Source: Escherichia coli
GTDB taxonomy: Bacteria; Pseudomonadota; Gammaproteobacteria; Enterobacterales; Enterobacteriaceae
DNA: 64,000 nucleotides
NCBI RefSeq assembly: GCF_011045215.1
Contig: NZ_CP049201.1
Strand: one strand, 5' to 3'
Shown here in pieces: positions 39,334-47,535 of the stretch (positions are counted from its first letter, which is position 1; the number at the start of each line of letters is the position of its first letter). The position numbers and the translations under genes were made by a program. The notes below the pieces were generated by a model. The model saw only the letters and a list, made by a program, of their open reading frames with translations. It was not told the DNA's origin and searched no databases.

Positions 39334-39474
39334 CGATCTGGATCACATTCGTTAACAAAACGGCTGTAACCGTTTCCATTGCTGTGACTCGATTCACGAA
39401 GTCCTGTATTCAGTGCTGACAAAATAGCCGCCAGCAAGCAGTCATTTACTGCAATCTCATAACAGGTAGTGAAT

Positions 39475-40515
39475 ATGATCACCATTCGTGATGTAGCGCG
39501 TCAGGCTGGCGTCTCTGTGGCAACGGTTTCCCGGGTGCTCAATAACAGCACGCTGGTCAGTGCCGATACGCGTGAAGCAGTAATGAAAGCCGTGAGTGAG
39601 CTGGATTATCGGCCAAACGCCAATGCCCAGGCGCTGGCAACTCAGGTTAGCGACACCATTGGCGTGGTGGTGATGGACGTTTCTGATGCGTTTTTCGGCG
39701 CGCTGGTAAAAGCGGTGGATCTGGTCGCCCAGCAGCATCAGAAATACGTGCTAATCGGCAATAGCTATCATGAAGCGGAAAAAGAACGTCACGCCATTGA
39801 GGTGTTAATTCGCCAGCGTTGTAATGCGTTGATTGTTCACTCAAAAGCATTGAGTGACGATGAACTGGCGCAATTTATGGATAACATTCCCGGTATGGTG
39901 TTAATCAACCGCGTTGTGCCGGGGTACGCCCATCGTTGCGTTTGCCTGGATAATCTCAGCGGTGCCCGAATGGCGACGCGCATGTTGCTGAATAACGGTC
40001 ATCAACGTATTGGTTATCTTTCTTCCAGTCACGGCATTGAAGATGACGCCATGCGTAAAGCAGGCTGGATGAGTGCGTTGAAAGAGCAGGATATTATTCC
40101 GCCGGAAGGCTGGATTGGCACTGGCACGCCGGACATGCCGGGCGGTGAGGCGGCGATGGTTGAACTGCTGGGGCGCAATCTACAACTTACCGCTGTATTT
40201 GCTTATAACGACAATATGGCCGCTGGCGCACTGACAGCATTAAAAGATAATGGCATTGCGATTCCGTTACATCTCTCAATCATCGGTTTCGATGATATTC
40301 CCATCGCCCGTTACACCGACCCGCAATTAACGACCGTGCGTTATCCCATTGCTTCAATGGCTAAATTAGCCACCGAACTGGCCTTGCAGGGTGCAGCAGG
40401 CAATATTGATCCTCGTGCCAGCCACTGTTTTATGCCGACGTTAGTGCGTCGCCATTCTGTCGCAACGCGCCAGAATGCGGCGGCGATCACTAACTCAACA
40501 AATCTGGCGATGTAA
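39475..40515 (+). CDS. galS: Galactose isorepressor GalS (LacI/GalR family)
   Basis: LacI-type HTH ([24 protein letters not shown]) and periplasmic-binding-protein-like core; 346 aa from the chosen ATG. Confidence 0.92.
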
Positions 40516-40527
40516 CCGCTTTCAATC

Positions 40528-40543
40528 TGTGAGTGATTTCACA
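40528..40543. promoter_or_regulatory. CRP-like site TGTGA-N6-TCACA in the mglB upstream region, with an adjacent GalR/GalS operator-like sequence (tgtaaccgctttcaat, 40511-40526)
   Basis: Perfect CRP half-sites with 6-bp spacer. Could alternatively act as a hairpin just downstream of galS. Confidence 0.55.
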
Positions 40544-40794
40544 GTATCTTAACAATGTGATAGCTATGATTGCACCGTTTTAACGTTGTAACCCGTATGT
40601 AACAGTGAATAATCACTTTCACCGAGGTAATAGCGTCATAACAACAATTAAAGCCGTTTTCTGGAGCGTTACCGGGCATGGAAGAACGAATTTTACAAAG
40701 TGAGCTTCGGCGTTCAGTAACACTTCATTAACTCTACTGCCCCGCCGAGCATTTATCTCAAGCACTACCCTGCATAAGAAAAACCGGAGATACC

Positions 40795-41793
40795 ATGAAT
40801 AAGAAGGTGTTAACCCTGTCTGCTGTGATGGCCAGCATGTTATTCGGTGCCGCTGCACACGCTGCTGATACTCGCATTGGTGTAACAATCTATAAGTACG
40901 ACGATAACTTTATGTCTGTGGTGCGCAAGGCTATTGAGCAGGATGCGAAAGCCGCGCCAGATGTTCAGCTGCTGATGAATGATTCTCAGAATGACCAGTC
41001 CAAGCAGAACGATCAGATCGACGTATTGCTGGCGAAAGGGGTGAAGGCACTGGCAATCAACCTGGTTGACCCGGCAGCTGCGGGTACGGTGATTGAGAAA
41101 GCGCGTGGGCAAAATGTGCCGGTGGTATTCTTTAACAAAGAACCGTCTCGTAAGGCGCTGGATAGCTACGACAAAGCCTACTACGTTGGCACTGACTCCA
41201 AAGAGTCCGGCATTATTCAGGGCGATTTGATTGCTAAACACTGGGCGGCGAATCAGGGTTGGGATCTGAACAAAGACGGTCAGATTCAGTTCGTACTGCT
41301 GAAAGGTGAACCGGGCCATCCGGATGCAGAAGCACGTACCACTTACGTGATTAAAGAGCTGAACGACAAAGGCATTAAAACTGAACAGTTACAGTTAGAT
41401 ACCGCAATGTGGGACACCGCTCAGGCGAAAGATAAGATGGACGCCTGGCTGTCTGGCCCGAACGCCAACAAAATCGAAGTGGTTATCGCCAACAACGATG
41501 CGATGGCAATGGGCGCGGTAGAAGCACTGAAAGCACACAACAAGTCCAGCATTCCGGTGTTTGGCGTCGATGCTCTGCCAGAAGCGCTGGCGCTGGTGAA
41601 ATCCGGTGCACTGGCGGGCACCGTACTGAACGATGCTAACAACCAGGCGAAAGCGACCTTTGATCTGGCGAAAAACCTGGCCGATGGTAAAGGTGCGGCT
41701 GATGGCACCAACTGGAAAATCGACAACAAAGTGGTCCGCGTACCTTATGTTGGCGTAGATAAAGACAACCTGGCTGAATTCAGCAAGAAATAA
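40795..41793 (+). CDS. mglB: Periplasmic D-galactose/D-glucose-binding protein MglB
   Basis: 332-aa ORF with signal peptide ([23 protein letters not shown]) and type I periplasmic binding protein features. Confidence 0.95.
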
Positions 41794-41853
41794 GACTGAT
41801 TGGGCGCAGTCTATTACTGCGCCCTTATTGTATGACCAACAAGGTAAAATTAT

Positions 41854-43374
41854 ATGGTCAGCTCAACGACTCCGTCCTCCGGGGAATACTTGTTGGAAAT
41901 GAGCGGTATCAGCAAGTCCTTTCCTGGTGTTAAGGCACTTGATAACGTTAATTTAAAAGTCCGGCCACATTCTATCCATGCATTAATGGGGGAAAACGGT
42001 GCAGGAAAATCGACATTATTAAAATGCCTGTTTGGTATTTATCAAAAAGACTCCGGCACCATTTTATTCCAGGGTAAAGAGATCGATTTTCATTCTGCCA
42101 AAGAAGCACTGGAAAATGGTATTTCGATGGTACACCAGGAGTTAAACCTGGTATTACAACGTTCGGTGATGGATAACATGTGGCTGGGGCGATATCCCAC
42201 CAAAGGCATGTTTGTCGATCAGGACAAAATGTACCGCGAAACCAAAGCGATTTTTGATGAACTGGATATTGATATCGATCCGCGTGCGCGCGTTGGCACA
42301 TTATCCGTTTCGCAAATGCAGATGATCGAAATCGCCAAAGCGTTTTCCTATAACGCGAAAATTGTGATTATGGATGAACCGACTTCTTCGTTAACCGAAA
42401 AAGAGGTCAATCATCTATTCACTATTATTCGTAAATTAAAAGAGCGCGGCTGCGGCATTGTCTATATCTCGCATAAAATGGAAGAGATCTTCCAGCTATG
42501 TGATGAAGTCACGGTACTGCGCGACGGTCAGTGGATAGCCACCGAACCGCTGGCAGGGCTGACGATGGACAAGATCATCGCCATGATGGTTGGGCGTTCT
42601 CTGAACCAACGTTTCCCGAATAAAGAAAACAAACCCGGCGAAGTGATCCTCGAAGTGCGTAACCTCACGTCGCTGCGCCAGCCGTCGATTCGCGATGTCT
42701 CGTTTGACCTGCATAAAGGGGAGATCCTCGGTATTGCCGGACTGGTGGGGGCGAAACGTACCGATATTGTTGAGACGTTATTTGGTATTCGCGAGAAATC
42801 GGCTGGCACCATTACGTTGCACGGCAAAAAGATCAATAACCATAATGCCAACGAAGCCATAAACCACGGATTTGCACTGGTAACTGAAGAGCGCCGCTCA
42901 ACGGGAATTTATGCCTATCTGGATATTGGCTTTAACTCGTTAATTTCCAATATTCGCAACTACAAAAATAAAGTTGGTTTACTGGATAACTCGCGGATGA
43001 AAAGCGATACCCAGTGGGTCATTGATTCGATGCGGGTAAAAACACCGGGGCATCGGACGCAAATAGGTTCGCTCTCAGGTGGCAATCAGCAAAAAGTGAT
43101 TATTGGTCGCTGGCTGTTAACGCAACCAGAAATATTAATGCTCGATGAACCGACGCGCGGTATTGATGTTGGGGCGAAGTTTGAGATTTATCAGTTAATT
43201 GCCGAACTGGCGAAGAAAGGCAAGGGGATTATTATTATCTCCTCTGAAATGCCAGAGTTGTTAGGGATAACAGACCGTATTCTGGTTATGAGCAATGGCC
43301 TCGTTTCCGGAATTGTCGATACAAAAACAACAACGCAAAACGAAATTCTGCGTCTTGCGTCTTTGCACCTTTAA
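41854..43374 (+). CDS. mglA: Galactose/methyl-galactoside ABC transporter ATP-binding protein MglA (duplicated ATPase domains)
   Basis: 506-aa ORF; Walker [10 protein letters not shown] and a second ABC domain. Confidence 0.95.
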
Positions 43375-43389
43375 GATTAGGGGCTTCCC

Positions 43390-44400
43390 ATGAGTGCGTT
43401 AAATAAGAAAAGTTTTCTTACTTACCTGAAAGAGGGCGGTATTTACGTCGTTCTTTTAGTTTTGCTGGCGATTATTATTTTCCAGGACCCAACATTTTTA
43501 AGTCTGTTGAACTTAAGTAATATTCTCACCCAGTCATCGGTGCGTATTATTATCGCGCTCGGCGTGGCAGGGTTAATTGTCACCCAGGGGACCGACCTTT
43601 CTGCAGGTCGTCAGGTGGGGCTGGCGGCAGTAGTAGCGGCGACGTTATTGCAGTCCATGGATAACGCCAACAAAGTGTTCCCGGAAATGGCGACGATGCC
43701 GATTGCGCTGGTTATTCTGATTGTCTGTGCCATTGGTGCGGTGATCGGTTTGATCAACGGTCTGATTATCGCTTATCTCAACGTGACGCCGTTCATTACC
43801 ACGCTTGGCACGATGATCATCGTCTATGGCATCAACTCGCTCTATTACGACTTTGTCGGGGCGTCGCCAATTTCTGGTTTTGACAGTGGCTTCTCTACCT
43901 TTGCTCAGGGCTTTGTCGCGCTGGGGAGTTTCCGTCTCTCTTACATCACCTTCTACGCGTTGATTGCGGTGGCGTTCGTCTGGGTGTTGTGGAACAAAAC
44001 CCGCTTCGGTAAGAACATTTTTGCCATTGGCGGTAACCCGGAAGCGGCAAAAGTATCTGGTGTCAACGTCGGCCTGAACCTGCTGATGATCTACGCGTTG
44101 TCTGGTGTGTTCTATGCCTTCGGCGGGATGTTAGAAGCCGGACGTATCGGTTCTGCCACCAACAACCTCGGCTTTATGTATGAACTGGATGCTATCGCGG
44201 CGTGCGTGGTAGGCGGTGTATCGTTCAGCGGCGGTGTGGGGACGGTGATTGGCGTGGTGACCGGGGTAATTATTTTTACCGTCATCAACTATGGCCTGAC
44301 GTATATCGGCGTAAACCCATACTGGCAGTACATCATCAAAGGGGCGATTATTATCTTCGCCGTAGCGCTGGATTCACTGAAATACGCGCGTAAGAAGTGA
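43390..44400 (+). CDS. mglC: Galactose/methyl-galactoside ABC transporter permease MglC
   Basis: 336-aa polytopic ORF immediately after mglA. Confidence 0.93.
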   Translation: MSALNKKSFLTYLKEGGIYVVLLVLLAIIIFQDPTFLSLLNLSNILTQSSVRIIIALGVAGLIVTQGTDLSAGRQVGLAAVVAATLLQSMDNANKVFPEMATMPIALVILIVCAIGAVIGLINGLIIAYLNVTPFITTLGTMIIVYGINSLYYDFVGASPISGFDSGFSTFAQGFVALGSFRLSYITFYALIAVAFVWVLWNKTRFGKNIFAIGGNPEAAKVSGVNVGLNLLMIYALSGVFYAFGGMLEAGRIGSATNNLGFMYELDAIAACVVGGVSFSGGVGTVIGVVTGVIIFTVINYGLTYIGVNPYWQYIIKGAIIIFAVALDSLKYARKK

Positions 44401-47342: not shown

Positions 47343-47535
47343 GTGATCTTCCTTAATGCTATGAGTAATTAAGGCGAACGCTAAATAAATATTGCGTGCT
47401 GATATTAAGGCTATGCGCGTGGGGAAATTTAAACTGTGAAAGGATTCACAAATAGCTGCGGTTCAGAATGTTATATCCGCAGCTTATTGAGTGTAGTAAT
47501 AATTATTCTCAATAATTAACAGAAAAGAGAAAATA

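Follow-up and report, generated by a model that had tools for sequence, protein, structure and literature searches.

The question raised by this locus is whether the perfect palindrome that lies directly behind galS in Escherichia coli belongs to the control region of the mglBAC operon or forms the end of the galS transcript. The window, meaning the whole 64,000-nucleotide stretch of DNA that was analysed, carries the E. coli chromosome order folE-yeiB-galS-mglBAC. A 601-bp query across the control region was present once in 5425 of the 5426 complete E. coli genomes, with 95-100% identity and with galS and mglB as the annotated genes. An identical layout is found in the MG1655 record, where galS is followed by a 279-bp gap and then by mglB, mglA, and mglC. 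Near the site, window positions are converted to MG1655 (NC_000913.3) coordinates by subtraction from 2281143. The galS stop codon TAA occupies 40513-40515 and falls inside the mgl operator, and the Shine-Dalgarno sequence GGAG of mglB is at 40786-40789. The other features are collected in Table 1. The evidence presented below makes it almost certain that positions 40510-40577 are the known mglBAC promoter-operator (mglBp) of E. coli; the element itself is not new.

Table 1 Features of the galS-mglB control region in window coordinates. Negative and positive offsets are counted from the mglB transcription start unless the ATG is named.
Feature	Position	Strand	Basis or remark
galS (mglD) coding sequence, gal isorepressor	39475-40515	+	ORF list; RefSeq annotation of identical or near-identical E. 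coli genomes and of MG1655
mgl operator (mglO), 16-bp GalS/GalR dyad, ATGTAACC followed by GCTTTCAA	40510-40525		Centre 40517.5 = -59.5; exact match to the gal operator core
CRP site, 22 bp, with core TGTGAGTGATTTCACA at 40528-40543	40525-40546		Centre 40535.5 = -41.5
-10 hexamer TATGAT of mglBp	40565-40570	+	5/6 consensus; last base 7 nt upstream of the mapped start
mglB transcription start site (G)	40577	+	Start-site table of Kim et al. 2012 (PMC3415461)
mglB 5' untranslated leader, 218 nt	40577-40794	+	Start site of Kim et al. 2012
Leader dyad GTGAATAATCAC (+29 to +40)	40605-40616	+	Sequence; overlaps a near-consensus -10, AATAAT, at 40608-40613
A-rich segment AACAACAAUUAAAGCC	40645-40655	+	Flanked by a mapped 3' end at 40645 (-150 from the ATG) and a 5' end at 40655 (-140)
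Predicted Spot 42 pairing site (-48 to -22 from the ATG)	40747-40773	+	RNAduplex with Spot 42 nt 1-24
mglB coding sequence, first gene of mglBAC	40795-41793	+	ORF list and RefSeq annotation; ATG at 40795

A perfect CRP-type palindrome had been claimed from the sequence at 40528-40543, and it was found exactly there. It starts 13 bp after the galS stop codon, as claimed, and lies 267 bp upstream of the mglB ATG (259.5 bp when measured from its centre). By chance, 64 kb should hold 0.04 copies of a perfect TGTGA-N6-TCACA; none of 100 shuffles carried at least two, and two are present in the window. The perfect CRP core is far above chance. The second perfect palindrome, TGTGAAAGGATTCACA, is located at 47435-47450 between yeiS and preT, and it precedes the start codon of preT (47344, minus strand) by 91 bp. 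The interval from mglB to preT is about 234 bp longer in the window than in MG1655.

A GalR/GalS operator-like sequence had also been proposed next to the palindrome. The operator is real, but it does not follow the galS stop codon as had been thought, and its best register contains the stop codon. The gal-operator core TGTAANCGNTTNCA has exact matches at only two places in the 64-kb window, 40511-40524 and 39365-39378, the latter upstream of galS; with at most one mismatch, 1.1 matches are expected by chance. Both exact cores lie 18-19 bp upstream of a CRP-type site, measured from centre to centre.

The assignment of both sites agrees with published genetics. Kinnersley et al. 2009 found a G-to-T mutation 3 bp past the end of mglD in all evolved chemostat clones, and this mutation, placed within the repressor site, led to semi-constitutive mglBAC expression. 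The mutated base maps to window position 40518, in the central CG of the operator dyad. In a 2021 follow-up, the operator mutation swept in three vessels, and it recurs in independent chemostats. The follow-up also reported a second adaptive mutation 17 bp from the operator mutation, which was assigned to the CRP activator site; it maps to 40535, in the CRP spacer. In the Reg-Seq work, the CRP site of mglBp was called confirmed, and footprints of CRP and RNA polymerase were seen on a construct centred on the annotated mglBp. One attempt at affinity mass spectrometry with an mglBp bait gave no enrichment of CRP, for which the authors blame the method.

The transcription start was then compared with these sites. 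Kim et al. 2012 (PMC3415461) mapped an mglB start to U00096.2 2238588(-) with a 5'UTR of 218 nt, and the upstream sequence given in their table, CTGTGAGTGATTTCACAGTATCTTAACAATGTGATAGCTATGATTGCACCG, ends at window G40577. This start has only 6 reads in one genome-wide data set. Among the Klebsiella start-site rows listed from that study, none for mglB was found. With the start at 40577, the centre of the CRP site falls at -41.5, as is canonical for class II, and that of the operator at -59.5. The published start thus lies downstream of the CRP site, and the mapping does not place the mglB promoter elsewhere. The -35 is poor, as CAGTAT at 17-bp spacing matches TTGACA at one of six bases. A generic sigma-70 scan detected no promoter at mglBp; this is attributed to the absence of a usable -35, which is expected of an activator-dependent promoter. 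A perfect CRP core centred at -41.5, a good -10, and a poor -35 together place mglBp among the class II CRP-dependent sigma-70 promoters, and activation of mglB transcription by CRP is known from the literature.

The module was further compared across Enterobacteriaceae. A search with MglB gave 80 loci from 80 species (L002-L081), with genera that include Escherichia, Citrobacter, Salmonella, Enterobacter, Klebsiella, Raoultella, Kosakonia, Kluyvera, Buttiauxella, and Cedecea. The upstream alignment consisted of 79 distinct sequences and the window. An operator and a perfect TGTGA-N6-TCACA, 18 bp apart from start to start, were present in all 80 species. The operator has the form ATGTAACCG-N-TTTCAA in 76 of the 80 loci, and the remaining four have C as base 13; apart from a degenerate 10th base and these rare changes at the 13th, it is invariant throughout. 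The CRP half-sites are invariant in the alignment while the spacer bases vary, which is the pattern expected of a protein site. The TATGAT hexamer is at least 97% conserved, and in 75/80 loci its first base lies 37 bp downstream of that of the CRP core. The base equivalent to the start site is G in 77/80.

The leader length is similarly stable, with an inferred 188-219 nt in 79/80 species and 412 nt in Citrobacter amalonaticus S646 (L024). The latter locus was considered as an exception without the site. This was rejected, as the site is present and had been displaced beyond the search range by a leader insertion of about 193 bp. The insertion (L024:2230-2425) is ERIC/IRU-like and sits between the conserved 5' part of the leader and the Spot 42 region.

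The end of galS behaves differently from the promoter. In 16 of the 80 species, namely Escherichia and a few relatives, the operator contains the galS stop codon, and the GalS of these species carries about 6 extra C-terminal residues. In 63/80, the stop codon is 15-18 bp further upstream. Since the stop codon shifts while the -10 register holds, the operator and CRP module travels with the mgl promoter and not with the end of galS. In E. coli, the position of the stop codon inside the operator means that some operator mutations would also touch the galS stop region. Csiszovszki et al. 2011 reported that Yersinia pestis has no galS but retains an mgl promoter and regulatory region of high similarity.

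These data bear directly on the other reading of the palindrome, which had been put forward as an alternative from the start: that it is an intrinsic (Rho-independent) terminator hairpin by which the galS transcript ends. Its position shortly after the galS stop codon and its ability to form a 7-bp hairpin agree with this reading, and a terminator scan of the + strand between galS and mglB (40516-40794) returned no terminator-like site that could serve in its place. However, the stem of 7 bp has only 3 G-C pairs and a folding energy of -6.9 kcal/mol, as compared with -16.5 kcal/mol for the hairpin between mglB and mglA. It is followed by UAUCUUAACAAU, with no U tract (tail TATCTTAACAATGTGA), and the terminator scan does not list the site itself. 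The local fold is no better than that of shuffles (z = -0.91). The stem bases are exact CRP consensus half-sites and never covary, the palindrome keeps its distance to the mgl -10 and not to the galS stop codon, and in Yersinia the promoter is kept in the reported absence of galS. Among the consecutive Term-seq entries of Adams et al. 2021 around this region (2239314, 2240498, and 2243669), no 3' end is given between 2240498 and 2243669; galS is weakly expressed in the Term-seq medium, so that an absent 3' end at the end of galS says little. Of the marks of an intrinsic terminator, neither a G+C-rich stable stem-loop, nor a U tract, nor a 3' end among these Term-seq entries was found at the palindrome. 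The terminator reading therefore has hardly any probability left and was dropped.

The hairpin between mglB and mglA, GGGCGCAGTCTATTACTGCGCCC, covers 41802-41829 and is followed by TTATT. It coincides with a strong 3' end that is labelled as 'primary' for mglB among the Term-seq entries for this region (2239314, window 41829). This fits either partial termination or stabilisation, by which more mglB than mglA/C message would be obtained. In Adams et al. 2021, an ORF-internal sRNA candidate, 'mglC int', is reported within mglC (window 43390-44400), with its own start site and with ArcZ chimeras in RIL-seq.

The fate of the galS transcript can be considered apart from the function of the palindrome as a CRP site. 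Both read-through into the mgl leader and Rho-dependent termination are possible. It was considered that the element may have a dual role, in which the operator and the CRP site, when occupied by protein, also limit read-through from galS, or in which galS transcripts continue into mglBAC. The two genes are co-directional with the operator sitting on the galS stop codon, the scan gave no + strand terminator-like site before mglB, and the Term-seq entries around this region hold no 3' end at the end of galS. The weight of the missing 3' end is small, as explained above, because galS expression is low in the sampled conditions, and Rho-dependent termination in the untranslated leader would be equally possible. 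The one 3' end given in the leader among these entries, at 40645, is itself scored as not Rho-dependent. Altogether, a dual role is regarded as unlikely.

The leader of mglB had been described as unusually long, at about 200 nt. It is long, and published start-site mapping sets its length at 218 nt. Csiszovszki et al. 2011 gave about 250 bp for the leader in E. coli and Y. pestis, so the long leader had been described before and is not new. The best-conserved part of the leader in the alignment is its last ~50 nt. No relevant family was returned by an Rfam scan of 40400-41900 at a permissive E-value. When folded, the whole leader was no more stable than shuffles (z = -0.19), and RNAalifold gave no consensus structure for the first 80 nt of the leader in 43 species.

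A second 5' end was listed by Kim et al. 2012 (PMC3415461) at 2238510(-), window 40655, with a 5'UTR of 140 nt. With 9 reads against 6 for 40577, this end could be taken as the functional mglB promoter, lying inside the leader, with the CRP and operator module acting from a distance or on another transcript. However, only a weak -10 (AACAAT) and no -35 are found upstream of 40655, and the CRP centre would be at -119.5, which is not an activating position. The conserved -10 and the invariant G sit at 40565-40577, and the Reg-Seq footprints of CRP and polymerase belong to the construct centred at the annotated mglBp. A Term-seq 3' end, 10 nt upstream at 40645 among the entries for this region, fits an endonucleolytic cut in the A-rich segment. 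A functional promoter at 40655 is thus very improbable, and G40577 is retained as the start of mglB.

The 3' end at 40645 corresponds to 2240498(-) among the Term-seq entries of Adams et al. 2021 for this region, with a read count of 92,182, a Rho score of 0.44, and an intrinsic terminator score of 1.47. These two scores indicate that the end is neither Rho-dependent nor an intrinsic terminator. A stem-loop domain predicted for the 5' part of the leader has its base 3 nt upstream of this very abundant end. The segment 40645-40655 is probably a processing site, at which an endonucleolytic cut followed by 3' trimming would leave a 5' fragment of about 69 nt. The first ~69 nt of the leader (40577-40645), which hold ATGTAAC and the GTGA-N4-TCAC dyad, might further accumulate as a discrete and stable 5'UTR-derived RNA and not as a mere decay intermediate, but this is quite unlikely. 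If true, such a leader RNA could act in trans, e.g., as an sRNA or a sponge tied to CRP/galactose signalling.

Within this 5' part, a dyad gtgaataatcac had been noted at about 40606-40617. It is present, and its position is one base off, at 40605-40616. In Reg-Seq, one mutation near +30 was reported to produce a consensus -10 together with a new start, which the AATAAT inside the dyad matches, and the promoter scan flagged TTGTAA-16-AATAAT at this place. When considered as an RNA hairpin, the GTGA-N4-TCAC dyad is 86% paired in 43 species, with covariation not clearly above shuffles.

Two short blocks of DNA are conserved outside the known sites. TTAACA (40549-40554, -28 to -23) is invariant in 79/80 loci while its flanks vary freely, and a simple model of mglBp with CRP and polymerase does not explain it. 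It was tried as a -35, but its spacing to TATGAT is only 10 bp and no -10-like sequence lies 16-18 bp downstream. Its reverse complement was tried as the extended -10 of an antisense promoter, but the bases that this would require are not conserved in other genera. The other block, ATGTAAC (40597-40603, +21 to +27), is nearly invariant in the alignment and equals the left half of the operator. It was rejected as a second full operator, as the right half is mismatched and the operator core pattern has no match there. As an alternative to a stable leader RNA, these two blocks of DNA might point to a regulator that has gone unrecognised.

The 3' part of the leader was compared with the sRNA Spot 42. 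Pairing of nt 1-24 of MG1655 Spot 42 (spf) with 40747-40773 gave -24.8 kcal/mol in RNAduplex, an energy reached by 0.8% of shuffles, and the block is highly conserved. Only the 5' 30 nt of Spot 42 gave a meaningful RNAduplex result; with the full-length RNA, an unrealistic end-to-end duplex was obtained that was no better than shuffles. Holmqvist et al. 2016 reported that in Salmonella, Spot 42 with Hfq represses mglB post-transcriptionally by pairing with a conserved site in the 5'UTR, on the downstream side of an Hfq peak, which compensatory mutations confirm. The exact duplex in E. coli is a computed prediction that agrees with the Salmonella report. The sRNA UhpU has also been listed with mglB as one of its RIL-seq partners and as a target that it represses.

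Taken together, start-site mapping, geometry, conservation, and published genetics support the reading of this element as the mgl promoter, equipped with a GalS/GalR operator and a CRP site and followed by a long leader. Regulation at the locus can be outlined as follows, with the binding of CRP and GalS/GalR and the direction of their effects taken from the literature. cAMP-CRP would bind the perfect palindrome at -41.5 and activate RNA polymerase, in class II fashion, at a TATGAT promoter that has no usable -35. In the absence of galactose, GalS, and more weakly GalR, would bind the 16-bp operator at -59.5 and block activation by CRP. Transcription from G40577 yields the 218-nt leader, whose 3' part (about -48 to -22 from the ATG) may serve as the Hfq-dependent target of Spot 42, itself a CRP-repressed sRNA. 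Together, activation by CRP and repression by Spot 42 would act on MglB synthesis as a feed-forward loop.

Within the gal regulon, the mgl promoter-operator is a textbook example, and under glucose limitation it is classically hit by adaptive mutations. Reading of the sequence alone had placed the promoter, the operator, and the leader correctly, and the terminator alternative has been removed. The residual leads are small, and they are the conserved blocks in the spacer and the early leader, the possible stable 5' leader fragment, and the apparent absence of a galS terminator.

As compared with known systems, the element is the same as mglBp of E. coli K-12 in EcoCyc/RegulonDB, and the bases of the operator, the CRP core, the -10, and the start site are identical to the MG1655 sequence in the start-site table. 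Only strain-level substitutions are found in the leader, e.g., CACTTTCACCGAGGTAATAGCG in the window versus CACTTTTGCCGAGGTAACAGCG in MG1655. Like the targets in the multi-output feed-forward loop of Spot 42 (spf), mglB is activated by CRP and, in Salmonella, repressed by Spot 42/Hfq via its 5'UTR; for E. coli the duplex is a prediction.

Promoter P1 of the gal operon has its external operator OE at -60.5 and CRP at -41.5. Besides OE and P1, the gal operon contains an internal operator, OI, and another promoter, P2, and it is repressed by looping. P1 and mgl are thus alike in the class II position of CRP at -41.5 and in a GalR/GalS operator about 1.5-2 helical turns upstream. They differ in that mgl has one full operator, with only the half-site look-alike ATGTAAC in its leader.

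The closest parallel lies in the same window, at the galS promoter. There, the operator CTGTAACCGTTTCCAT (39364-39379, with an exact core) is followed by the CRP-type site TGTGACTCGATTCACG (39383-39398) in the same orientation to the gene. The two centres are 19 bp apart at galS versus 18 bp at mgl, and the galS CRP core carries one mismatch (TCACG). The galS leader is short, with the module about 85 bp before the ATG at 39475, in contrast to the long leader of mglB. Since both promoters combine an operator with a CRP site, the window holds two copies of one regulatory module.
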